14,022 bases of DNA from Abditibacteriaceae bacterium (GCA_031425655.1 JANPJS010000240.1:1-14022), one strand, 5' to 3'; shown: positions 2,289 through 14,022, counted from the first letter of the stretch. Notes: generated from the sequence alone by a model not told the origin. Translations and numbers: made by a program.

Positions 2289-3272
2289 ATGTCGCAGCGG
2301 CACCAATTACAGCGGATATTAGAGATTGATCGCAGCATCCGTTCCGGACAGTTTCCTAACGCCGATTCTCTTTCAGCGGAATTGGAAGTGGGGCGCCGCG
2401 TCATTTTCAACGACCGGCGCTTCATGGTGGATCAGCTCGGCGCGCCGATTGAGTTTGATAAGCAGCGGGGCGGCTGGCGGTATGCCAGCGAAACTTATGC
2501 GCTGCCCTCTACTTTGGTCACCGAAGGCGAGTTGATGGCGTTTTTTATCAGCGTTGAAGTCGCCCAGCGTTATCTGGGCACGGCCTTCGAGACGCCGTTG
2601 CATTCGGCGGTGGGGAAGATTGCTCGCAGCCTTCAGGGGCGCGCTTTAGTGAGCCTGCACACGCTGCATCAGCATTACACGTTTGCGCCGCCGCCGTCGG
2701 CTCCAACTAATGAGGCCGCGCTGCTGGCGTTGCACGAAGCCATCGAAAGCCGGCGCGCCGTAGCGATGTCCTACCACACGGCCAGCCGGCGTGAGAAAAG
2801 CGAACGCATCGTGCATCCCCATCATTTACTGCATCAAAGCGGCGAATGGTATCTCCTCGCTTATGATCGCAAGCGGGCCAAGATACTGACTTTCAATATC
2901 GCGCGCATCGAGTGGTGGCGCGTGCTGGACGAACGATTTACGCGCGAAGCCAACTTCGATCCTATCGAGCAACAGCGCGCGGCCTTCGGCGCCGAATCGC
3001 AGACTGGCGTGCTGCCCGTCGTGATTCTTTTCGCGCCCGAAGAAGCGGTTTACATCCGCGAGCGGCGCTGGCACGAAACGCAGCAAATCGAGGAATTGCC
3101 CGGCGGAGGCTTGATTTTGCGCTTCCAAACCAGCGGTTTAGGCGCCGTCAAACGCTGGGTGCTGGGCTACGGCCCACACGCCGAAGTTTTGGAACCTGTC
3201 ACATTGCGCGAAGAAATCGTGAAAGAGATTGAAGCGATGAAAACGGTTTACGAAGGAGAAAATGAACGATAA
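2289..3272 (+). CDS. WYL-domain transcriptional regulator (N-terminal wHTH, WYL, WCX; PafB/PafC/YafY-like)
   Basis: 327 aa. It has an N-terminal HTH (LSAELEVGRRVIFNDRRFM...LGAPIEFD...GWRY), a WYL core (R.VHPHHL....GEWYLLAYD..R..ILTFNIARI) and a WCX-like tail (WVLGYGPHAEVLEPVTLREEI). A good SD is present. Confidence 0.93.
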   Translation: MSQRHQLQRILEIDRSIRSGQFPNADSLSAELEVGRRVIFNDRRFMVDQLGAPIEFDKQRGGWRYASETYALPSTLVTEGELMAFFISVEVAQRYLGTAFETPLHSAVGKIARSLQGRALVSLHTLHQHYTFAPPPSAPTNEAALLALHEAIESRRAVAMSYHTASRREKSERIVHPHHLLHQSGEWYLLAYDRKRAKILTFNIARIEWWRVLDERFTREANFDPIEQQRAAFGAESQTGVLPVVILFAPEEAVYIRERRWHETQQIEELPGGGLILRFQTSGLGAVKRWVLGYGPHAEVLEPVTLREEIVKEIEAMKTVYEGENER

Positions 3273-6036
3273 ATTGCTTGTGTTGTGGGGCAAAACCTGC
3301 CGCGACCCGAAAGAACCCGAAGCGGATTTGATTTACCATCCGCTGTTGTTTCATTTGCTCGACGTTGGGCACTGCACGCTGGAATTGTGGGACACCTTTT
3401 TGAGTGATGGCTGGAAAAAGCGCATCGCCGAAACTTTGGCGTGCGACGAAACGACCGCGCGCTGGGCTATGGCGTTTTTGGCGGGCGCGCACGATTTGGG
3501 AAAAGCCACGCCCGGCTTTCAATTCCAAAAAACGCCTCTCGACTGGCTCCGCGAACGCTTGCACTCGGCAGGTTTTATGGCTCCTGCTAATCCCGAAAAC
3601 AAGCCGCACAATTTTGTTTCCAGCAAGGAACTGCATCATTTCTGGATGCAAAATCTGTGGCGATGGCAAGCGCAAAACCGGCGTGTCGCTCCGGTTTTGG
3701 CGCATATCACCGGCGCCCATCACGGCACGTTTCCTAACGCCGGCGATTACAGCAAATGGAACGATGATGTTTTAGGAAGCCCTATCTGGCGCGAAGCACG
3801 ATTGGCGCTTTTAGATGCTTTGGCCGCACATCTTTGTCCACCTGATTTCGCGTTTCCGCCGACGCTAAAGTGGGATGATGCCGGAGCAATTCCCGTTTTG
3901 GCGGGTCTGATTTCGGTCGCCGACTGGATTGGCTCATCAAGTCATTTCAGAATCGAAGGGCACCGCGACAAGCTGATAAGCGTGCCCGATTATCTTCTGA
4001 AGTCGCGCAAACGGGCGCGGACAGCGTTGGATGATTTCGGTTTTGCAGCCACGCCGCGCTTTGTCGCGCCGAAGCCTGATTTCGCAGAGTTTTGGGGCTT
4101 TGAGCCTAATCCTCTGCAAGATGCTGTCATCGCGCAAACGCAAAACGCCCAAGCACCGTTTTTGCTGCTTTGTGAAGCGCCGATGGGTTCGGGCAAAACC
4201 GAAAGCGCCTTTTGGGCGGCTGACGCGGCATTCACGGGCGCGCTCAATCAAGGGCTTTACATCGCGCTACCCACGCAAGCGACCTCCAACGCCATGCACG
4301 CGCGCACCCGCAAATTCTTGGAAAAGCGATTGCCGCGGGGCGCCATTCACTTGCAGTTAGTTCATGGAAATGCTGGGCTTTTGGAAACGCCCAATGTGGT
4401 CTTTGAGCCGCTTTCCACGCTTTACGAGCAACTGGAAAACGACCCCGAAAAAGCGCGTGTGATGGCGCTGAGTTGGTTTTCGGGCGCCAAGCGTCCGCTT
4501 CTGGCACCCTTTGGCGTCGGCACCATTGACCAAAGCCTGCTGGGCGCCTTGCAAAGCCGCCACTGGTTCGTGCGCCTTTTTGGTTTGGCCGGAAAAGTCG
4601 TGGTATTCGACGAAGTTCACGCCTACGACACCTACATGAGCCGCTTGCTCATCGTGCTGCTGCACTGGCTGCGCGAATTGGGATGCAGCGTGATTTTGCT
4701 GTCGGCGACACTGCCGTCGGGCAAGCGCCGCGAATTAGTCGAAGCGTGGGGCGCGGCTTTGCCTGATGCAGAAGCCAAATATCCGCGCTTGACCTGGTGC
4801 GACGACAAGCCCAATGCCGTTTCCATCGGCATCGAAGGCGCGGAAATGGCGCCCAAAAACGTTGCTGTTTCAGTTTTGAAGCCGGAAAATCTCGCCGCCG
4901 AATTGCGCCGCAAATTGAAAAACGGCGGTTGCGCGGCCATCATCTGCAACACCGTCAAAGAAGCTCAAGCCTTGTTTCAGATTTTGCAAAGCGAACTCGG
5001 CGATTTCATTAAACCTAAGGGCTTAATACTGTTTCACGCACGAATGCCGTTTAAGTGGCGCCGAAGAATCGAAAGCAAAGTCCGGCGGCTTTTTGGCAAA
5101 CGCAAGGCAATGCGACCGCATCGCGCTATTATTGTGTCAACGCAATTATTAGAGCAGTCGCTTGATCTCGATTTTGATTGGATGGCTTCGTTCATGGCGC
5201 CCAGCGACTTGTTGTTGCAGCGCGTGGGCCGTTTACATCGCCACCCCGAAACGCCGCATCGCTACGATTTAACGCAGCCACAGTTAGCGATTCTTTGCGA
5301 TGCCGAAGGCGACGCTCCGCCCAATTTCGGCGCATCCGAGTGGGTTTACGAGCGGGAAGTTTTGCTGCGTTCGTGGCTTTTGTGGCGCGGCAAAACCGTG
5401 TTGAAATTGCCCGGCGAAATCGAATCGCTGATTGAGAACACCTACGAAAACGCGCCCCATCTGCCCGACGAAATTTGGCGCAAAGCCATCGTAGACGCCC
5501 AAGCCCATGCCGAAAACGAACGGAGCAAGGCCGAAGGGAAGGCCAAAAACGTCGTGGTGAAGCTGCGAACCGAACGTGGCAATCGCCGCGCGCCCAGCGA
5601 ATTAGTGGAAGCGCCGTCGTTGGATTTGCGCGATGATGACGACCCGGCGATTCACGCCGCTCTGCGCGCCTCAACGCGCGATGGCGACGAATCCGTCACA
5701 GTGATTTGCCTTTGCCTTGTGGGAAAGTCGTTTTATCTGCCGTCGCCTGACGGCACGCCCAATCTACAGTCGCCGGTGAGCCTAAAGCAGGAGCTGGCTA
5801 AAAACGAAGCAAAAAAGCTGATGGATTTCGCGGTTTCGCTGTCGCAAAAAGGGCTTTATGGGGAACTGTTGCAAATCGAAGTGCCCGCCGCGTGGAAAAA
5901 ATCGCCGTTCTTGCGCCACGCCCGCCCGCTGTGCTTCCACAACGGCGCCGTTGCCATCGGCAACTTCGTTTTGCGCTTGGACGGCGCGTTAGGAATTGTC
6001 ATCGAAAAGGAGAAAAGCGAAACAGGAGCCGAATAA
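3262..6036 (+). CDS. cas3: CRISPR-associated helicase/nuclease Cas3 (HD + SF2 helicase), type I-E
   Basis: 924 aa. HD motifs HLLDV, HDLGKA, HHG and ADW; Walker A APMGSGKTE; Walker B DEVH; SAT; motif VI QRVGRLHRH. SD GGAG; overlaps the WYL gene by 11 nt. Confidence 0.97.
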   Translation: MNDKLLVLWGKTCRDPKEPEADLIYHPLLFHLLDVGHCTLELWDTFLSDGWKKRIAETLACDETTARWAMAFLAGAHDLGKATPGFQFQKTPLDWLRERLHSAGFMAPANPENKPHNFVSSKELHHFWMQNLWRWQAQNRRVAPVLAHITGAHHGTFPNAGDYSKWNDDVLGSPIWREARLALLDALAAHLCPPDFAFPPTLKWDDAGAIPVLAGLISVADWIGSSSHFRIEGHRDKLISVPDYLLKSRKRARTALDDFGFAATPRFVAPKPDFAEFWGFEPNPLQDAVIAQTQNAQAPFLLLCEAPMGSGKTESAFWAADAAFTGALNQGLYIALPTQATSNAMHARTRKFLEKRLPRGAIHLQLVHGNAGLLETPNVVFEPLSTLYEQLENDPEKARVMALSWFSGAKRPLLAPFGVGTIDQSLLGALQSRHWFVRLFGLAGKVVVFDEVHAYDTYMSRLLIVLLHWLRELGCSVILLSATLPSGKRRELVEAWGAALPDAEAKYPRLTWCDDKPNAVSIGIEGAEMAPKNVAVSVLKPENLAAELRRKLKNGGCAAIICNTVKEAQALFQILQSELGDFIKPKGLILFHARMPFKWRRRIESKVRRLFGKRKAMRPHRAIIVSTQLLEQSLDLDFDWMASFMAPSDLLLQRVGRLHRHPETPHRYDLTQPQLAILCDAEGDAPPNFGASEWVYEREVLLRSWLLWRGKTVLKLPGEIESLIENTYENAPHLPDEIWRKAIVDAQAHAENERSKAEGKAKNVVVKLRTERGNRRAPSELVEAPSLDLRDDDDPAIHAALRASTRDGDESVTVICLCLVGKSFYLPSPDGTPNLQSPVSLKQELAKNEAKKLMDFAVSLSQKGLYGELLQIEVPAAWKKSPFLRHARPLCFHNGAVAIGNFVLRLDGALGIVIEKEKSETGAE

Positions 6037-6050
6037 CTTCGGCTCCTGTT
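6021..6050. terminator. Perfect 13-bp hairpin, probable intrinsic terminator (U-rich tail on the minus strand)
   Basis: AACAGGAGCCGAA-TAAC-TTCGGCTCCTGTT, with the cas3 stop codon in the loop. On the minus strand it is followed by TCGCTTTTCTCCTTTT. Confidence 0.65.
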
Positions 6051-6135
6051 CATCCCTGCGCTTGCTGGGAACTAAATAGCGAACGCGAAACTACTCAGCG
6101 TAATTGCGGTTCATACCCGCGCTTGCGGGTAACAA
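6046..6135 (-). CRISPR. Single-spacer mini-CRISPR with degenerate repeats (CreA/CreR-like regulatory guide)
   Basis: On the minus strand: TTGTTACCCGCAAGCGCGGGTATGAACCG (6135-6107, 24/29 identical to the array repeat), a 32-nt spacer CAATTACGCTGAGTAGTTTCGCGTTCGCTATT (6106-6075), then TAGTTCCCAGCAAGCGCAGGGATGAACAG (6074-6046, 22/29). The 61-nt period is the same as in the main array. Confidence 0.9.
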
Positions 6136-6168
6136 AAAGAGGTTACCTTTTTTGATTTCACAATGCAG

Positions 6169-6197
6169 TTGACAGAAACCGTCAGCTTTTGTAAATT
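6169..6197 (+). promoter_or_regulatory. Sigma70-type promoter upstream of the Cascade operon
   Basis: TTGACA (6169-6174), 17 nt, TAAATT (6192-6197). A second, weaker candidate is TTGCTT (6240-6245), 16 nt, TAATAT (6262-6267). Confidence 0.65.
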
Positions 6198-6210
6198 TTG
6201 AGTCGGAGGT

Positions 6211-6245
6211 GAGACATTACGCGATACAACGCAACGTAATTGCTT
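6211..6245 (-). promoter_or_regulatory. Self-target (protospacer plus AAG PAM) of the 6046-6135 mini-CRISPR
   Basis: The minus strand reads AAG-CAATTACGTTGCGTTGTATCGCGTAATGTCTC. It matches the mini-array spacer at 20 of the 24 PAM-proximal positions, including positions 1-8. Confidence 0.85.
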
Positions 6246-6479
6246 GCAAAAATGCAAAAAATAATATTTGAAGGCGCGTTCTGATAGGATTGTTGGCTCT
6301 GGCGCGCCAACGCCAGAGCCAACTGTGCAATCCCGTCGGACTTCGATAAATGCTGTTTGCTCCAACGTTTATCGAAACGGGTCGCGCGCCGCCCATCCAT
6401 GCTTCGGCAACTGCCGAATTTGACCTTGGCGGGGACGACACAGAGTAGTTTACCGTGTCGTCCCCGCTCCGGGAGGACG

Positions 6480-8087
6480 ATGAATTTTACTTTTAATCTG
6501 CTCACTGAGCCGTGGATTCCCGTTTTGCAGAATGACGGAAAAATCCGCGATGTGGGGCTGCGTGAGCTTTTGCTCGACGCTCACAATTTCCGCGAAATCG
6601 CCCACGATTCGCCGCCGTTCGTAGCGTCGCTGCTGATGGTTGGCGTGGCGTTGCTGCACAGCGCGTGGCCCGGCGAAACGACTATCGAACGCGAGGACGA
6701 ATGGGAGCGCGTGTGGAATCTGGGGCGCTTCGACGCCGACGTTCTGGAAGCGTATTTCCAAAAGTGGGCCGACCGCTTCGATTTGTTTCATCCTCAATTT
6801 CCGTTTTACCAGACGGCGGGCATGACGATGGAAAAGGACAGCGCGCTTTTTCGTCTGGCACTGGATGAGAACAACGCCGGGATGTTCGCCAACGAAGCTA
6901 ATCCCGAATGGCAGGCGCCCTCGCCGCAAATCGCCGCGCAATTGCTGCTTTGCATCCAAAGCTACGCCGTTGGTTTGGGTCTGACCAGCAACGCCAAAAT
7001 CGGCGCCGAAGTTTTGGAAACGCCGCGTTTTACCAACGGCGTGCTGATGAGTGGTCTCACCATTTGGCCGTCGGGCGCCACGCTTTTTCAAACTTTGATG
7101 CTTAATACGGTGCCGCACGAACGCGCCGAAGACGACAAGCCCTGCTGGGAACTGGACGCGCCGCATCTTTTGCGCGACACCGAAAGCAAGGCCGGGCGCC
7201 GCGTGGAGCCGGTGCGTGGCATTTGCGATTTGCTGACGCTGCAAAGCCGCTTAATTCGGCTGTTACCGGTTGAGCGCAACGGACAAGTTGCCGTTCCCAG
7301 CGTGTATTTCACGCAGGGTCGCAGTGTCAGCAGAAGCGGCGGCACCGAGTTTCATCCTTTCAAACTCTATATTCCCAGCAAAGAAACCGGCTTCACACCG
7401 CTGTCTTTGAGCGAAAACAAGGCAATTTGGCGCAACAGCGCGGCGCTTTTATCGCCCGAAACGCGCAAGCACGACGCACGCAATCCTTTATCGTTTGTAG
7501 CGCAGATGGCGCAGGGCGGCGTGCTGGCGCCGGATTTCCGCGCCGGTTTGGACGTTGTCGGCATTGCTACCAAACCGGGCAAAGCGGCCAGTATTTTGTT
7601 GTGGCGCCATGACCGCTTGCCACTGCCTCCGGCGCTTTTGCTCGACCGCAACGTCGAAAGTCGCGTTCACGCAGCCATTGACGAGGCCGACAAACTCGCT
7701 GACGAAATGCGCCTGCGCTTTTCCATGGTGGCGCGCACGCTTTTGGTGCCGGAAAAAATGGCCGGTCACAGTCCCGACCCGGACGACGTAAAGAATCTGG
7801 TTGCTAAGTTCGATCCGCGCCGGGCGTTTTGGCCGCAACTGGAAACTCCGTTTCTCGATTTTCTCAAGCGACTGCCCACCGAACCCGATGCGGCGCGCAG
7901 CGATTGGCGCACGGCTATCGAAATGACGGCCAACGAATGTTTTGGCGCCGCGTGCAACGCGCTGGGCACCGGGCCGGACGCCGTTGTCGCCGTCGCGCAG
8001 GTTTCGCGCTTTTTCAAGCTCGAACACATTCTCGAACGCGCCGAAAAATTCAAATCTTCCCGGCCTAAAACCGCCAAAAAGCGGTAA
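6480..8087 (+). CDS. cas8e: Type I-E Cascade large subunit Cas8e (Cse1/CasA)
   Basis: The start was reassigned to ATG 6480 (SD GGGAGG at 6471-6476). The N-terminus FNLLTEPWIPV and the motifs RFDLFHPQFPFYQ, G.TLFQTLMLN and LTLQSRLIRL are typical of Cse1. 535 aa. Confidence 0.95.
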   Translation: MNFTFNLLTEPWIPVLQNDGKIRDVGLRELLLDAHNFREIAHDSPPFVASLLMVGVALLHSAWPGETTIEREDEWERVWNLGRFDADVLEAYFQKWADRFDLFHPQFPFYQTAGMTMEKDSALFRLALDENNAGMFANEANPEWQAPSPQIAAQLLLCIQSYAVGLGLTSNAKIGAEVLETPRFTNGVLMSGLTIWPSGATLFQTLMLNTVPHERAEDDKPCWELDAPHLLRDTESKAGRRVEPVRGICDLLTLQSRLIRLLPVERNGQVAVPSVYFTQGRSVSRSGGTEFHPFKLYIPSKETGFTPLSLSENKAIWRNSAALLSPETRKHDARNPLSFVAQMAQGGVLAPDFRAGLDVVGIATKPGKAASILLWRHDRLPLPPALLLDRNVESRVHAAIDEADKLADEMRLRFSMVARTLLVPEKMAGHSPDPDDVKNLVAKFDPRRAFWPQLETPFLDFLKRLPTEPDAARSDWRTAIEMTANECFGAACNALGTGPDAVVAVAQVSRFFKLEHILERAEKFKSSRPKTAKKR

Positions 8088-8112
8088 TGGCCTACTTCGT
8101 TAAGGAGAATTT

Positions 8113-8655
8113 ATGACCCACTGGGAAACATCCGAAGAACTGCGCGCTCGCGTGGGGCGGCTGGTCGGACGGCTGGCGAGCCTCGAAAGCAACGACGCCG
8201 GCTCCGACCGCGCGACGATGGCCGCTTTGCGCTCTGGCTTGCGGCACAGCGACGGCGTGGCGTTGGAGATGATGCCGTTTCTCTCCAAATTTTTGCCGCC
8301 GCAGGAATCCAAGCGCGACGCGCGCTGGTTTCAAGTCGCCGCGCTGTTTGCGCTGCATCCGCAAAACACGCGGCGGGAAACCTTCGCGCAAGCGTTTCGC
8401 AAATTAGCCGACGCCGGTTCGGAATCGGTTGAAAAACGCTTTCAACTGCTCTTGTCTTGTCACGGCGACGACTTGTTTCGTCACCTGACGCAGTGCGTGG
8501 GCTTATTGCACGCGCAAAACATCTCGCTCAATTGGTATCAATTGCTGCTCGACTTGTCCGCCGGCGATTGGGACGATCCGCGCCGCACCATCCAAATGCG
8601 CTGGGCGCGTGAATTTTACCGCCAGCGTGCCGAAGAATTTGCCTCGCAAAACTGA
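8113..8655 (+). CDS. cas11: Type I-E Cascade small subunit Cas11 (Cse2/CasB)
   Basis: 180 aa helical protein with A.LR.G, VAALFALHP, SVEKRFQLLL, NWYQLLLDL and RWAREFYR. SD TAAGGAG. It lies between cas8e and cas7. Confidence 0.93.
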   Translation: MTHWETSEELRARVGRLVGRLASLESNDAGSDRATMAALRSGLRHSDGVALEMMPFLSKFLPPQESKRDARWFQVAALFALHPQNTRRETFAQAFRKLADAGSESVEKRFQLLLSCHGDDLFRHLTQCVGLLHAQNISLNWYQLLLDLSAGDWDDPRRTIQMRWAREFYRQRAEEFASQN

Positions 8656-8665
8656 AAGGAATTTT

Positions 8666-9925
8666 ATGAAACTTGAACTGCACCTCATCCAGAGCTTTGG
8701 CCCGTCGTGCCTGAACCGCGACGCGACCAACTCGCCCAAAGACTGCGAATTCGGCGGCGTGCGCCGCGCCCGCGTCTCGTCGCAATGCTTCAAACGCTCC
8801 ATCCGCGAGTTTTTCCGCGACAACAATCTCGTGCCGGTTGGCGAGCGCACCAAGCGTCTGCGCGCTGAAATTGGCACCTTCCTGCCTGAATTGGAGCCGC
8901 AGGAGCTTGTGCCTTTCGCCGTTGACGCCTTCGTGGACACCTATTACGCCAAAAACGATTCCAAAAAGCCCGAACACTCTTCGGTTTTGCTGTTTTTGTC
9001 GCAAGTCGAACTCGAAGAAGCGGCCAAGTGCATTAGTGACAGTTGGGCCGATTTGAAGCCTTTTGCCGACGCGCGGCGCAAGGAAATCGAAAAAATCGCC
9101 GCCAAAGCCTCCAAAAAAGGCGCGACTCCGGCGTTGCCGCTCGAAGGTGAAGAACCGGCGCCCGAAGCCAGCGACGATGGCGCGGCAGGCGATGGAAAAT
9201 ACAAAAATCTGCCCAAAGCCAAAGAAGATAAAACCATCGTGGAGCGGCTTCGCAGCGCCGCGCTGTCATCGGACATCGCGCTATTTGGGCGAATGTTGGC
9301 CGAACACACCGAGCATCGCATCGAAGCCGCCGTGCAAGTCGCGCACGCGATTTCGACGCACGCCGTAACGCCGGAACTGGACTTCTTTTCGGCGGTGGAC
9401 GACCTCAACAAAGATGACGCGGGTGCTGGAATGCTCGGCGTGACCGGCTTTAACGCCGCCGTGTTTTATCGCTATGCGCTGCTCGATTTCGACGCATTGG
9501 AACTGAATCTCAAGGGCGACCGCGCGGTGGCGCTGCAAACGGCGCGGGCGTTTTTGCGGGCTTTCGTGGAAGCGATTCCCAGCGGCAAGCAAAACTCGAT
9601 GGCCGCGCAAAGCCTGCCGTCGCTGGGCGTTTTCGTGGTGCGCGAAAGCGGAGCGCCGTGCAGTCTGGTGAATGCTTTTTGCGAGCCGATTAGCACTAAA
9701 AAGAAAACGCAGGGAGAGCAAGAATCGCGCGGTTTCTTGCGAGATTCGGTGGACGAATTCGCCGGCTACTGGGAACGCTATGCAAAGGTTTACGGCGAGG
9801 ACGGCATCACTGAAAAAGCCTTGTTTTGCATGGAAAAGGCGCCGCAACTGGGCAGTTTGGCGGCGGCTGACAAAGGCTCGGCCAAAGCCGCCATTGACGC
9901 TGCGATGAAAGCTCTGGGCGAGTAA
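8666..9925 (+). CDS. cas7: Type I-E Cascade backbone Cas7 (Cse4/CasC)
   Basis: Start at ATG 8666 (SD AAGGA). Motifs LELHLIQSFGPSCLNRD...PK...FGGVRRARVSSQCFKR, DIALFGRMLA, AAVQVAHAISTH, DFFSAVDDL and PSGKQNS. Confidence 0.97.
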   Translation: MKLELHLIQSFGPSCLNRDATNSPKDCEFGGVRRARVSSQCFKRSIREFFRDNNLVPVGERTKRLRAEIGTFLPELEPQELVPFAVDAFVDTYYAKNDSKKPEHSSVLLFLSQVELEEAAKCISDSWADLKPFADARRKEIEKIAAKASKKGATPALPLEGEEPAPEASDDGAAGDGKYKNLPKAKEDKTIVERLRSAALSSDIALFGRMLAEHTEHRIEAAVQVAHAISTHAVTPELDFFSAVDDLNKDDAGAGMLGVTGFNAAVFYRYALLDFDALELNLKGDRAVALQTARAFLRAFVEAIPSGKQNSMAAQSLPSLGVFVVRESGAPCSLVNAFCEPISTKKKTQGEQESRGFLRDSVDEFAGYWERYAKVYGEDGITEKALFCMEKAPQLGSLAAADKGSAKAAIDAAMKALGE

Positions 9926-9935
9926 AGGAGGCGCC

Positions 9936-10604
9936 ATGCCACATACATTATTGCTGGATTTGGTCGGCCCAATGCAGTCGTGGGGCCATCGCTCGCGCTT
10001 CGACAACCGAGACACCGGCTTGGAACCCACGAGATCAGGCGTGGTGGGCTTGTTGTGCGCGGCGCTGGGCTGGGCGCGCGACGCCGATTTAAGCCGCTTC
10101 GAGTCGCTCCAAATGGGCGTGCGCGTGGAAAAACCGGGGCGCGTGGCGCTGGATTTTCATACCGCGCAGCGTCGCCCCGACGAAAACGCCACGATTTCAA
10201 GCCGCTATTACCTCGCCGATGCGCGTTTTCTGGTTGGTCTGGAAGGCGATTTGGAATGGCTGCAAACTTTGCAAGCGGCGCTCAATAACCCGAAATGGCC
10301 ACTTTTTCTGGGGCGTAAAGCCTTTCCCCCGGCGTTGCCCGTGGCGCGTGGCATCGAAGAGGGAGTAGTAAAAACTGTTTTGCAACGCGCAGCATGGATC
10401 GCCCTGACAAGCGCCGAAAAGCGGCGAGGCGAAAAGTTGGCGCCGCTAAAATTGGTTTTGGAAACGCTCAATCCTGCCGACGGCGAAACCATCATGGACG
10501 CGCCGCGCGACTTCGAGCGGCGGCGCTACGGCGTGCGGTATTTGACGTTCGAGAGCGTTTCTTCGCCTCCCATCGCCTTATGGAACGAAGGAGCAAACTC
10601 ATGA
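9936..10604 (+). CDS. cas5: Type I-E Cas5 (CasD)
   Basis: Motifs LLLDLVGPMQSWG...R.T...PTRSGVVGLLCAALG, DFHT, RYYLADARFLVGLEG and LFLGRKAFPP. SD AGGAGG. Confidence 0.96.
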   Translation: MPHTLLLDLVGPMQSWGHRSRFDNRDTGLEPTRSGVVGLLCAALGWARDADLSRFESLQMGVRVEKPGRVALDFHTAQRRPDENATISSRYYLADARFLVGLEGDLEWLQTLQAALNNPKWPLFLGRKAFPPALPVARGIEEGVVKTVLQRAAWIALTSAEKRRGEKLAPLKLVLETLNPADGETIMDAPRDFERRRYGVRYLTFESVSSPPIALWNEGANS

Positions 10605-11419
10605 TTTATCTTTCGCGCTTGTTTCTCGATCCGTTTGCGCGGCGCGTGCAAAACGAGTTGGCGGCGCCTTACGAAATGCACCGGACGTTGTGTCACGCGT
10701 TTCCCGATTTGTCGAAAGAGCAGTGGGAAGCGGCGCGCGTGTTGTTTCGCGCCGACGAGGAAAAAGGCCGCATCGCCTTGATTGTGCAGTCGAAAATCGC
10801 GCCGAATTGGGCAGATTTCGCGGCCAAAGTTGAGGGACGCTATCTGCTGGCTGCGCCGGATGTGAAAGCGTGGCAGCCGCAGTTCCAAGTCGGGCAAAAG
10901 CTGCGCTTTCGCTTGCAGGCGAATCCGACGTTTTCGCCAAAAAGCGAAGGCAAGCGCGGCCAAAGGCGCGGCCTTTACCGCGAAGCTGAGCGTTTGGACT
11001 GGCTGCGGCATCGTGGCGAACGCAACGGCTTCGAGTTGCCGTTGGTTGAAACCACGCTTCGCAAAATGGGCAGCAGCAAAATCGTTTTTCGTGGCAAAGA
11101 ATTGGACGAAAGCGAACTCACGCTCGATTTGCCGCTGTGCGAAGTCGTGGATTTGAACGGCGGGCGTTTAGTCAGCGAGAAACCGCTGCGCCACAGTGAC
11201 CGCACACGGCGCACTTTGAGCCATCCGATGCCGCTGGATCGGCCAGAAGGTGAAAACCAGCCGCGCCGCGTGAACTTCGGTTCGAGTGAATTTTCCGCTG
11301 CACGCTTCGACGGCGTGCTGCAAGTCACCGAGTCGGAAAAGTTCGTGGCGGCGGTGGAAAACGGCATCGGCAAAGCGCGAGGCTTTGGTTTCGGTCTGCT
11401 CTCGCTGGCTCGCGCCTAA
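10601..11419 (+). CDS. cas6e: Type I-E crRNA processing endonuclease Cas6e (Cse3/CasE)
   Basis: Start at ATG 10601 (ATGA overlap with the cas5 stop; SD GGAG). Motifs MIYLSRL, YEMHRTL, LRFRLQANPT, FDGVLQV and the glycine-rich loop GIGKARGFGFGLLSL. 272 aa. Confidence 0.96.
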   Translation: MIYLSRLFLDPFARRVQNELAAPYEMHRTLCHAFPDLSKEQWEAARVLFRADEEKGRIALIVQSKIAPNWADFAAKVEGRYLLAAPDVKAWQPQFQVGQKLRFRLQANPTFSPKSEGKRGQRRGLYREAERLDWLRHRGERNGFELPLVETTLRKMGSSKIVFRGKELDESELTLDLPLCEVVDLNGGRLVSEKPLRHSDRTRRTLSHPMPLDRPEGENQPRRVNFGSSEFSAARFDGVLQVTESEKFVAAVENGIGKARGFGFGLLSLARA

Positions 11420-11509
11420 AGGTTCCTCGCCTGCGCGGGGATGAACCGGTGCGCGACTCACTCACTTATCTTTACGTCGAGTGTTCCCTGCGAGCGCGGG
11501 GACGAATTA
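11420..11509 (+). CRISPR. Single-spacer mini-CRISPR with degenerate repeats; the spacer derives from a cas1 gene
   Basis: AGGTTCCTCGCCTGCGCGGGGATGAACCG (11420-11448, 23/29), a 32-nt spacer GTGCGCGACTCACTCACTTATCTTTACGTCGA (11449-11480), then GTGTTCCCTGCGAGCGCGGGGACGAATTA (11481-11509, 21/29). Both stems are preserved through G-U pairs, and the period is 61 nt. Confidence 0.92.
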
Positions 11510-11521
11510 TGGAGGTGCATC

Positions 11522-12487
11522 ATGGGACGCATGGACGACCTGCACATCTTGCCCAAAATTAGGGACAGCCTGACATACCTTTACGTCGAACACGCGACGA
11601 TTGACCGTCACGAAAACAGCATCGCGCTGTGGGACAAAGAAGGCTGCACGCCGGCACCGGCTTCGTCGCTGTGTGTGCTAATGCTGGGGCCGGGCACGCG
11701 CATCACGCAGGCCGCTATCACCATGTTGGCCGACAACAATTGCCTGACGGTTTGGTGCGGCGAGGAAAACGTGCGTTTCTACGCGTGGGGCACGGGCGGC
11801 ACACGCAGCGCCGCGCCGCTTTTGCATCAGGCGCGCATGGTCAGCAATGAAACGCTGCGCCTTGAGGTAGTGCGGCGGATGTATCGAATGCGTTTTGAAG
11901 GCGATCTCGATCCGGCGCTCACGGTGGAGCAGTTGCGAGGCATGGAGGGCGCAAGGGTGCGCGAGACTTACAAGAAGTTCAGCAACGACACCGGCGTCGC
12001 GTGGGAAGGAAGGTCTTACGACCGGACGCGTTGGAACAACACCGATTTAGTCAACAAAGCGCTGTCGTGCGCGAACTCCTGCCTTTATGGTTTGTGCCAC
12101 GCCGCGATTTTGGCGACCGGCTACAGTCCGGGGCTGGGCTTCATTCATACCGGAAAGCAGTTGTCGTTCGTCTACGATATTGCCGACCTCTATAAGGCTG
12201 AACTGACGATTCCACTGGCCTTTTCGGTGGCCGCGGATGCTCCGGCGCAGTTGGAACGCACGGTGCGTTTGCGCTGCCGCGATATTTTCCGCGAAAGCCG
12301 TCTTTTGCAGCGCATCATCCCCGACATTCGCCGCGCTTTAAATGCCCCCGCCGACGCAGATGGCTGGGAATCTCCGCTGGACGAAGACCCGGCGCAGCCG
12401 ACGGATTTGTGGACGCCGTCGTGGGAGCAAGCCGGCAATGCAGCGCCTGAATCGCAGCCCGGCGACGAACAATGGGGTAACGGCTGA
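11522..12487 (+). CDS. cas1: Type I-E Cas1 integrase
   Basis: The start was reassigned to ATG 11522 (SD GGAGGT at 11511-11516); ATG 11531 is also possible. Motifs LMLGPGTRIT, WCGE, QLRGMEGARVR, GYSPGLGFIHTG and SFVYDIADLYK. It has an acidic C-terminal tail. Confidence 0.97.
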   Translation: MGRMDDLHILPKIRDSLTYLYVEHATIDRHENSIALWDKEGCTPAPASSLCVLMLGPGTRITQAAITMLADNNCLTVWCGEENVRFYAWGTGGTRSAAPLLHQARMVSNETLRLEVVRRMYRMRFEGDLDPALTVEQLRGMEGARVRETYKKFSNDTGVAWEGRSYDRTRWNNTDLVNKALSCANSCLYGLCHAAILATGYSPGLGFIHTGKQLSFVYDIADLYKAELTIPLAFSVAADAPAQLERTVRLRCRDIFRESRLLQRIIPDIRRALNAPADADGWESPLDEDPAQPTDLWTPSWEQAGNAAPESQPGDEQWGNG

Positions 12488-12508
12488 GACCCGGCAAGGA
12501 GCAAAGCG

Positions 12509-12823
12509 ATGGTAATCCTCATCATGGAGCGCGTGCCGACCGGCCTGCGCGGAGAATTGTCCCGCTGGATGATCGAGCCGAAGGCCAACGTTTTTGTGGG
12601 CAAGATGTCGGCGATGGTGCGCGATAAACTGTGGGACAAGGTGTGCGAAAAATCAAAGGATGGCGCAGCGACCTTGATTTTTCCGGCGCCCAATGAACAG
12701 GGCTTCGCCATGCGAACTTGGGGCAGCAGCCGGCGCGAATTGGTAGATTACGAGGGGCTGACGTTGGTTCGCATCCCAAAGCCTACCGAAAAGGAGGACA
12801 AAGAAGAAGTCAGCACTTTGTAA
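12509..12823 (+). CDS. cas2: Type I-E Cas2
   Basis: MVILIMERVPTGLRGELSRWMIEP...VFVG..SA.VRDKLW, NEQGF and DYEGLTLV are characteristic of Cas2 in I-E systems. SD AAGGAG. Confidence 0.96.
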   Translation: MVILIMERVPTGLRGELSRWMIEPKANVFVGKMSAMVRDKLWDKVCEKSKDGAATLIFPAPNEQGFAMRTWGSSRRELVDYEGLTLVRIPKPTEKEDKEEVSTL

Positions 12824-12884
12824 GTCCACCTGCGTTATCCTTCTAAGCCGGCAATTAAGGGTTGATTTCCACTGGTCGCTAAGT
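12824..12884 (+). promoter_or_regulatory. CRISPR leader (short, 61 nt from the cas2 stop) with a near-consensus IHF-like site
   Basis: It lies between cas2 and the first repeat. TTAAGGGTTGATT (12855-12867) differs by one base from YAANNNNTTGATW and ends 17 nt before the first repeat. Confidence 0.55.
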
Positions 12885-14022
12885 GTGTTCCCCGCAGGTG
12901 CGGGGATGAACCGTCGTTCAATCGCTGCGCGCTCTGTGTCGCATTGTGTTCCCCGCAGGTGCGGGGATGAACCGGTAGTTTCAGCGTTCATAATACCCCG
13001 GAAATTGTGTTCCCCGCAGGTGCGGGGATGAACCGGGTATCGCATGGTGTCTTTCCTTGTTCATGGGGTGTTCCCCGCAGGTGCGGGGATGAACCGACAA
13101 GAATGATGATATTGTCATACCTGCTGGCGTGTTCCCCGCAGGTGCGGGGATGAACCGATAACCGCGACGATTTTTCCGGTGCCATATAAGTGTTCCCCGC
13201 AGGTGCGGGGATGAACCGAAGAGGAAGACGATATTTACGGGGGTATTCAAGTGTTCCCCGCAGGTGCGGGGATGAACCGTATTGACCGCCGCGCGTGATG
13301 AGGCGAGAGCCGTGTTCCCCGCAGGTGCGGGGATGAACCGGCATCGGCGTCTTCACTAATACGCGCCCGCTTGTGTTCCCCGCAGGTGCGGGGATGAACC
13401 GAACCGATGCCTTCGCCCACGATCTCGCCGCTGGTGTTCCCCGCAGGTGCGGGGATGAACCGTTTGAAGATGTTTATATTGAAGGATATAAGACGTGTTC
13501 CCCGCAGGTGCGGGGATGAACCGGCCGGGCGGCGCGGGCCGCATCTCTTCGCTCAGTGTTCCCCGCAGGTGCGGGGATGAACCGAGTTGGGCCGCGCTGG
13601 CGATGGGTTTGGACATGTGTTCCCCGCAGGTGCGGGGATGAACCTGGTGACAAACATCGCAGAAAGCGCCGTGGTCGGTGTTCCCCGCAGGTGCGGGGAT
13701 GAACCGCAGCAGAGGCAGCAAAAGCAATAGCAGCGCAGGTGTTCCCCGCAGGTGCGGGGATGAACCGCCGCCACTGCGCGACTTATGGACGCCTGCCGAG
13801 TGTTCCCCGCAGGTGCGGGGATGAACCGCGGAACCGTGACTCTGAGCGCCGACCCGTTCAGTGTTCCCCGCAGGTGCGGGGATGAACCGCGCTCAAAATA
13901 GACTTGTCGCCCGTTTTCGTCGTGTTCCCCGCAGGTGCGGGGATGAACCGACCTGTGTGGCCTCGCCTGTCGAACTGGCATGGTGTTCCCCGCAGGTGCG
14001 GGGATGAACCGAGCAGTGGATT
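12885..14022 (+). CRISPR. Type I-E CRISPR array: 19 repeats, 18 complete 32-nt spacers, truncated by the window end
   Basis: The 29-nt repeat GTGTTCCCCGCAGGTGCGGGGATGAACCG occurs every 61 nt from 12885 to 13983. It has a 7-bp stem TCCCCGC/GCGGGGA and the 3' handle ATGAACCG typical of I-E. The only variant seen is a terminal T at 13645. Confidence 0.99.

Follow-up and report, generated by a model that had tools for sequence, protein, structure and literature searches.

A single-spacer type I-E CRISPR unit with a cas1-derived spacer between cas6e and cas1 of an Abditibacteriaceae bacterium

The stretch of 14,022 nucleotides (nt) described here (Abditibacteriaceae bacterium, GCA_031425655.1 JANPJS010000240.1:1-14022), referred to below as the window, is an entire 14-kb contig (C240 of genome G000) and contains a complete type I-E CRISPR locus with its cas genes, all of which are open and have clear Pfam matches. 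Between cas6e and cas1 of this locus lies a genuine single-spacer type I-E CRISPR unit, situated within the cas operon, whose 32-nt spacer copies codons 13-23 of an I-E cas1 gene in the sense orientation. The spacer is best read as a snapshot of a cas1 5' end, taken either from an older version of this lineage's own gene or from a sibling allele. The unit itself we tentatively regard, at somewhat less than an even chance, as a maintained guide against cas1 versions other than the resident one, competent to form a CRISPR RNA (crRNA). This reading draws on the anatomy of the unit, the selective pattern of its substitutions, the better match of its spacer to relatives than to the resident gene, the escape-like character of the resident sites, and the recurrence of the layout in another phylum. 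Genomes, contigs and loci other than the window are cited by our own labels (G, C and L, respectively).

Anatomy of the unit

The first-pass annotation of the window had described a repeat-spacer-repeat unit of 29, 32 and 29 nt filling the gap between cas6e and cas1, and both its coordinates (11,420-11,509) and its lengths hold. The gap of 102 nt consists of a first degenerate repeat (R1, 11,420-11,448), the spacer (11,449-11,480), a second degenerate repeat (R2, 11,481-11,509) and a linker of 12 nt (11,510-11,521), all on the plus strand, with the cas6e stop codon ending at 11,419 and directly abutting R1. The linker carries the cas1 ribosome-binding site, with a Shine-Dalgarno-like run after R2, and aligns to the site in front of cas1 in the congener G002.

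R1 agrees with the repeat of the main array at 23/29 positions (mismatches at 1, 2, 8, 12, 13 and 15) and has an intact hairpin and handle (11,441-11,448), and R2 agrees with it at 21/29 (mismatches at 9, 12, 13, 15, 23 and 27-29), retaining positions 1-22; the last 7 positions of R2 have diverged and the ATG that would be expected there is lost. The two repeats are identical to each other at 19/29 positions. A repeat search places both of them in register with the main array, on the same strand and 61 nt apart from start to start, and the hairpin formed by R1, R2 and the main repeat is the same in each case, a stem of 7 bp and a loop of 4 nt. The region 11,100-11,900 is identical base for base in a separately built contig, probably of the source sample, and an assembly artefact is therefore unlikely. 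No target-site duplication flanking the window unit is visible in comparison with the G002 junction.

The ATG in the R1 handle opens a stop-free frame that runs in phase into cas1 (11,441-12,487, an open reading frame of 348 amino acids), and cleavage by Cas6e would set this ATG at the extreme 5' end of the downstream RNA.

Conservation of the positions needed for a crRNA

The positions needed for a crRNA were set beforehand as both stems, the 8 bases that end R1 and the 4 that begin R2, a division that follows what is known of Cas6e and Cascade in E. coli and Thermus. Changes in the window unit affect 2/39 needed positions and 12/19 of the others (Fisher p = 4e-6), and the two changed needed positions still pair, by wobble. 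When the two units found in Acidobacteriota (G061 and G089, see below) are included, all 7 stem pairs are kept in 6/6 repeats, and the handle part is changed at 1/24 positions in the R1 repeats versus 11/24 in the R2 repeats (p = 0.002). For the window unit alone, the R1 handle is kept at 8/8 positions and the R2 handle at 4/8, an asymmetry that is also that of regulatory mini-arrays. The ATG of the R2 handle is lost in all three units. No promoter-like site was found in 10,900-12,950, so the unit is probably co-transcribed by read-through of the operon. As far as can be judged from the kept hairpins and R1 handle, the unit looks able to yield one normal crRNA, as the first-pass annotation had proposed.

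The spacer and the resident cas1 site

The resident cas1, which is single-copy in G000 (one match), contains the counterpart of the spacer 109 nt downstream, at 11,558-11,589, where 22/32 nucleotides and 10/11 residues agree. This site starts immediately after a conserved Lys codon, which is AAA in the resident gene and occupies the place of the would-be protospacer adjacent motif (PAM); codon and site together span 11,555-11,589 on the plus strand. The resemblance and its position had both been noted in the first-pass annotation, and both are borne out. The next best site for the spacer in the window reaches 18/32, and two unrelated sites in the genome as a whole (6 Mb) also reach 22/32, so that the match count by itself proves little. 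The match was judged to be non-random from its place, 109 nt away and right after the Lys codon, and from its codon pattern: six codons contain all 10 differences, five of them being changed synonymously, including a three-base switch between Ser codons, while the sixth exchanges Val and Ile (by eye).

The resident site mismatches the spacer at positions 1, 3, 4, 6, 10, 11, 12, 15, 18 and 21, the first three of which lie in the seed, and matches it throughout positions 22-32, at the PAM-distal end. Its Arg codon at spacer positions 4-6 is AGG, which accounts for 5/270 Arg codons in nine cas genes, and nearly all relatives carry CGC at this place. With its seed mismatches and its rare AGG codon, the resident site looks like an escape variant.

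Elsewhere in the genome, no site lies within 3 mismatches of the spacer other than the spacer itself, and an identical or nearly identical site, as would be expected of a self-targeting relic, was not found in the own genome, the best reaching 22/32. Seed-anchored targets in the own genome are at chance level, the longest runs being of 12 nt, with 4 sites against about 11 expected. A site in cas2 (12,617-12,648) that combines an ATG PAM with the first 8 spacer bases, and matches at 15/32 overall, was judged to be due to chance.

Comparison with cas1 genes of other genomes

The spacer was compared with 167 distinct I-E cas1 sites from fetched loci. The PAM place reads AAG or AAA in 148/167 of them, the seed is perfect in 24/167, and 30/167 are closer to the spacer than the resident gene is. 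The best matches were found in G002, a member of the same genus, whose site agrees with the spacer at 27/32, has no mismatch at positions 1-8 and is preceded by AAA, and in locus L114, also at 27/32, with an AAG PAM. Setting aside every sixth position, which is flipped out by Cascade, leaves 3 effective mismatches for G002 and 7 for the resident gene, three of them in the seed. Four of the five differences between the spacer and G002 are at third-codon positions (by eye), and of the sites that distinguish G002 from the resident gene, the spacer agrees with the former at 7 and with the latter at 2 (by eye).

A guide that excludes siblings would match the homologous region of relatives better than its own, which is what was found here (27/32 in G002 against 22/32 in the resident gene) and also for the spacers in G061 and G089. 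The first-pass proposal of a guide to non-resident cas1 genes gains accordingly from G002, L114 and the 30 closer sites; the near-perfect natural target that it had led one to expect was not encountered among the 167 distinct sites, the best reaching 27/32. A search of viral contigs with the back-translated spacer pattern gave no match, and only 6 I-E-like cas1 genes were present on contigs classed as viral.

In G002 the unit is absent and the cas6e stop codon is separated from the cas1 start by 17 nt. The first five bases of this junction (L181 ~14106-14137) equal repeat positions 2-6, and the first eight bases of G002 cas1 equal the 3' handle of the repeat; a handle-like octamer at the cas1 start was seen in 2/102 loci with a known repeat. 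These likenesses may be the remains of a lost repeat or may be due to chance.

Recurrence in Acidobacteriota

A first survey of 156 I-E cas1 loci from genomes and metagenomes revealed one further unit directly 5' of cas1, in locus L068 on contig C5 of G061 (Pyrinomonadaceae). Its spacer is 34 nt long, and a core of 32 nt within it corresponds to cas1 nt 13-44, where once more a Lys codon directly precedes. The core matches the cas1 of G080 at 27/32 (by eye), that of the paralogous locus G061:C3 at 26/32 and that of L054 at 25/32, versus 19/32 for its own cas1 (by eye). Compared with the C3 paralogue, the resident site of G061 has 13 differences in 11 codons, where the mean is 4.7, which places it in the top 4 of 310 windows and makes it the most divergent stretch of the whole cas1.

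An orthologous unit is present in the related species G089, with the same upstream remnant of a cas1 start and the same derived R1 loop as in G061:C5. Its spacer, of 33 nt, differs from that of G061 and equals cas1 nt 115-147. It agrees with three other alleles at 28/33, the five differences from G061:C5 being all at third codon positions, and with its own cas1 at 26/33, where the changes include the PAM codon and seed positions 1 and 3. The repeats of the G061 and G089 units are 90% identical and the non-coding flanks 71%. The layout is thus no one-off accident, the outcome that the first-pass annotation had named as fatal to its proposal, since it recurs in two genomes with other cas1-derived spacers.

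The G061 and G089 units are flanked by a duplicated cas1 start of ~35-40 nt (L068 2871-2997; L192 ~617-749; L184 ~1500-1540), and the uninterrupted counterpart of the site is found in G061:C3 and G080. Duplication and intact site together fit insertion, and later loss, by recombination via spacer-sized homology. In a Cas1 tree G089 is placed next to the pair of G061:C5 and G061:C3 (support 93/91 and 97/92), from which it follows that the unit was probably ancestral to all three and was lost from C3.

No further units were found in 14 loci of that order, in 29 loci of the phylum of the window, or in 23 loci of two other phyla, 15 of which were testable (8 were without a repeat of their own). 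Solitary repeats 5' of cas1 did not emerge from the surveys as a general feature. Among ~215 I-E cas1 loci sampled without regard to the unit, a single one carried it. Spacers derived from cas1 were present in 3/3 single-spacer units 5' of cas1 versus 0/~165 ordinary spacers, no cas-like spacer having been found among 31 from the main array of G000, ~76 from G061, G002 and G014, and 58 from L103, L121, L253 and L254; the position of the unit and the origin of its spacer are therefore coupled. In the last four loci a full array of the same orientation ends 50-215 nt before cas1. The unit was also considered as the relic of such an array, an explanation that was rejected, their 58 spacers being ordinary. 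A scan of the DNA for upstream copies ('echoes') of the cas1 5' end proved too insensitive, the real cases scoring no better than shuffles.

Two other arrangements were observed in front of cas1. A small gene of ~96 amino acids lies on the opposite strand between cas6e and cas1 in G061:C5 (L068 2518-2808, minus strand), G061:C3, G080 and G089. In G014 (L094 ~1360-1480) and L101 (~2370-2500), two hairpins precede cas1, whose arms are mutual copies in swapped order, the first hairpin being followed by a T-run; the pair looks like a terminator/anti-terminator arrangement before cas1.

Relation to known CRISPR elements

Spacers against a host's own genes are said to have been interpreted as relics of autoimmunity (Stern and co-workers, 2010). 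Like these, the cas1 unit has a spacer from the host's own kind of gene and a target mutated so that the cell survives. Such relics normally lie in a regular array, often accompanied by damaged cas genes, whereas the cas1 unit is separate, stands beside its target and belongs to a locus with open cas genes. Off-target spacer integration by I-E Cas1-Cas2 has reportedly given rise to neo-CRISPR loci (Nivala and co-workers, 2018), which resemble the cas1 unit in having a spacer between two direct repeats outside the regular array. The flanks of neo-CRISPR loci are, however, duplicated ordinary genomic sequence, and off-target integration was rejected here because the flanks of the cas1 unit are true CRISPR repeats with a hairpin.

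Regulatory mini-arrays of the CreR/CreA type have been described for type I systems (Shmakov et al. 2023, 10.1101/2023.03.03.530964; Liu et al. 2023, 10.1101/2023.03.10.532045). In the portions of these preprints available to us, the I-E CreR examples are found in the interval from cas3 to cas8e, and the cas8e promoter is their target, recognized through a PAM and a matching 5' seed. As far as those portions go, the cas1 unit is like CreR/CreA elements in that two degenerate repeats surround one spacer inside a cas locus, the crRNA-forming parts of the repeats are kept while the rest decays, and the spacer is partly complementary to a site in the same locus. It is unlike the CreR elements set out there in lying between cas6e and cas1, in having a piece of cas1 coding sequence as its spacer, and in the loss of the resident seed, which leaves a PAM-distal match.

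The window offers an internal control, since a second mini-array, CreR-like, is present in the gap between cas3 and cas8e (6,046-6,135, minus strand; repeat 6,135-6,107, spacer 6,106-6,075, repeat 6,074-6,046). Its repeats form hairpins and agree with the main repeat at 24/29 and 22/29, and it fits the layout described for I-E CreR elements in the preprint portions just mentioned. The spacer finds a predicted target 136 nt away, 5' of cas8e (6,211-6,245, minus strand, in direct-repeat family D20), with an AAG PAM, a perfect seed at positions 1-8 and 22/32 matches overall, so AAG is indeed in use in this system. In G002 the same place is occupied by a counterpart whose spacer is different. The CreR-like unit keeps PAM and seed to its resident target and the cas1 unit does the opposite. 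Although the degenerate repeats of the cas1 unit keep their crRNA-forming parts, as in CreR-type elements, its resident site is mismatched at 1, 3 and 4 and lies not at a cas or toxin promoter but in cas1 coding sequence, 36 nt after the start; having been examined for a PAM and seed match to a resident target, and lacking it, the cas1 unit is not a standard CreR.

In the cas1 unit, R1 agrees at 25/29 (by eye) with one repeat of the CreR-like unit of G002 (L181 ~8603-8631, minus strand), with which it has two derived bases in common and to which it is closer than to any main-array repeat seen. At loop position 15 the main-array repeat has T, and all four mini-array repeats, like the repeats of G002 and L101, have C, so that both mini-arrays are probably older than the change to T in the main array.

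Mini-CRISPR arrays borne by archaeal viruses have been linked to heterotypic superinfection exclusion (Medvedeva et al. 2019, PMC6858448). In the part of that article available to us, their one or two spacers, like that of the cas1 unit, match the homologous region of close relatives and not that of the carrier, so that sibling alleles are discriminated. According to the same part, those arrays are carried by viruses without cas genes and are directed against rival viruses, whereas the cas1 unit is in a chromosomal cas operon, has a cas-like spacer and has no known perfect target. Full-text searches of the literature and the accessible portions of the two preprints on CreR elements yielded no account of a mini-array between cas6e and cas1 whose spacer derives from cas1, although the supplementary tables of the preprints may list such positions.

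Proposed role of the unit

As a maintained guide, the unit would be read through from the Cascade operon, and Cas6e, to judge from the kept features, would cut at the base of both hairpins to release one 61-nt crRNA, in which R1 supplies the 8-nt handle, the spacer the 32-nt guide and R2 the 21-nt hairpin. Cascade loaded with this crRNA would be expected to ignore the resident cas1, mismatched as it is in the PAM-proximal seed. The guide can still pair with any cas1 in which the older sequence persists behind the conserved Lys codon, as in G002, and might direct interference against it. The unit would then be a permanent defence against non-resident I-E cas1 genes and the homologous modules, incoming or rival, to which they belong. 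As to its origin, the place beside cas1 is best accounted for by homology between spacer and protospacer, which would have brought a piece derived from the array there, as the duplicated target sites in Acidobacteriota suggest. One possible route is excision from the array of a small circle or fragment, whose spacer then recombines with its protospacer in the chromosome, an event that would leave a repeat-spacer-repeat flanked by duplicated target, as the G061 and G089 units are. Adjacent spacers taken up during a single primed episode would be expected to stem from one strand and from the same 150 nt, which is what was observed.

The layout hints at conflict between CRISPR systems. A wider proposal, which we hold to be rather unlikely in its entirety, is that mini-arrays just upstream of cas1 are self-renewing allele-exclusion modules, in which a crRNA directed at the conserved 5' end of I-E cas1, flanked by its Lys codon, is combined with a resident cas1 recoded at PAM and seed, mismatched targets prime new spacers from the same 150 nt, the resulting arms race speeds the evolution of the cas1 5' end, and homologous modules that enter by gene transfer are excluded or, at the extreme, replaced.

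Several points weigh against a maintained guide. None of the 167 cas1 sites exceeds 27/32 and the best, in G002, has AAA and not AAG, which means that the source allele was not found among them. The window unit is seen only in G000 and is absent from G002, G005, G013 and G014, so that conservation of this unit itself cannot be demonstrated. The window and G002 do not diverge more at the site than elsewhere (the site ranks 88th among 312 windows). I-E repeats of different lineages differ mostly in the loop and at the ends, and part of the substitution pattern could have been inherited from functional arrays instead of having been kept in place. In G061 the spacer exceeds the proper length by 2 nt and, read in the cas1 frame, is interrupted by a stop codon, as a relic in decay would be. 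The consequence of seed mismatches and the PAM rules on which the reading leans come from E. coli, and the benefit to a host of excluding foreign cas1 is unclear.

Alternative explanations

A functionless scar, left by self-targeting in the past, would account for most of these observations and, although we lean away from it, is nearly as likely as a maintained guide. A spacer from the cell's own cas1, or from a near-identical one, would once have been acquired, a piece of the array would have recombined beside the target by way of the homology between spacer and protospacer, and the cell would have survived because cas1 mutated away from the spacer, leaving a harmless passenger. The rarity of the unit (1 in ~215 loci) and its absence from four family relatives with I-E cas1 are as expected of such a scar. 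So are the cas1-start duplications flanking the G061 and G089 units, with the intact site in G061:C3 and G080, as by-products of recombination; the extreme divergence of the resident G061 site from C3, as a mark of past self-targeting pressure; and the decay of the G061 spacer. A passenger would not be expected, however, to accumulate substitutions that spare exactly the positions needed for a crRNA, nor to be kept in two species with conserved repeats. The spacers of the window and of G089 are moreover free of non-synonymous decay, though the non-essential repeat positions have changed heavily, and spacer turnover in one orthologous unit has given a second cas1-derived spacer.

A regulator acting in cis on the adaptation genes is an unlikely explanation. 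Cleavage by Cas6e at the two hairpins might uncouple the cas1-cas2 message from that of Cascade, or a CreR-like crRNA might throttle adaptation by leading Cascade to the cas1 5' end. The unit is internal to the operon and ends 12 nt short of cas1, with probable co-transcription in the absence of a promoter-like site nearby; the R2-handle ATG is lost in all three units, as if to protect cas1 translation; and CreR-type mini-arrays are established for I-E systems, at least in the accessible portions of the two preprints (Shmakov et al. 2023; Liu et al. 2023). The resident site, on the other hand, is without a seed match, and its complementarity is PAM-distal, the reverse of CreR targets and of the AAG and perfect seed of the locus's own CreR-like unit. 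Processing as such would require neither the R1 handle nor an intact spacer, and no seed-anchored target in the genome rises above chance.

The suggestion, also made in the first-pass annotation, that the unit and an immune cas1 allele form a homing or drive cassette, which spreads by killing and replacing chromosomes with a susceptible cas1, is very improbable, and no direct evidence for it emerged. In its favour, the G061 and G089 units are cassettes between direct duplications that recombination could insert or excise, 2/3 members of one Cas1 clade carry the unit, and the cas1-start remnant 5' of the G061 unit resembles the G080/C3 type of allele more than the resident one. The window locus bears no sign of the module swap that had likewise been envisaged, identity to G002 being 80% for Cas6e, 82% for Cas1, 73% for Cas2 and 77% for both Cas7 and Cas5. 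Neither a transfer event nor a perfect target came to light, and the rarity of the unit is unexpected for a successful drive.

Chance resemblance or an assembly artefact, which could appeal to the two unrelated genome sites that reach 22/32, is effectively refuted by the two in-register repeats with hairpins 61 nt apart, the codon-level pattern of the differences, the agreement of an independent contig and the recurrence of the layout elsewhere.

Organization of the locus

The interference genes cas3, cas8e, cse2, cas7 and cas5 occupy 3,262-10,604 on the plus strand, are all open and are supported by Pfam. They are followed on the same strand by cas6e (10,604-11,419, with an approximate start; PF08798 on 10,394-11,419), the unit described above, cas1 (11,522-12,487, 321 amino acids; PF01867) and cas2 (12,509-12,823; PF09707). 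The main CRISPR array, with 19 repeats on the plus strand, extends from 12,885 to 14,011 and reaches the contig end; 14 further repeats sit at one end of contig C194, on which the array probably continues. The closest database records to Cas1 are titled Armatimonadota, together with similar uncultured bacteria. A protein with WYL and WCX domains is encoded directly 5' of cas3, overlapping its start (2,289-3,272); it is kept in G002 (70%) and G014 (42%) and is probably a transcriptional regulator of the locus.

Significance

The mini-arrays known from cas loci have a regulatory role and direct Cascade to promoters of the system to which they belong. The cas1 unit aims at nothing in its own genome and has a piece of a cas gene as its guide, and two units in another phylum likewise carry different pieces of cas1. 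Should the unit be a scar, it shows an array fragment carried to its own target, a plausible route for the birth of regulatory mini-arrays. Should the guide be active, it would be the first case of a chromosomal CRISPR system that polices the identity of its own adaptation gene or excludes rival modules, and it would explain the locally fast evolution at the start of cas1.

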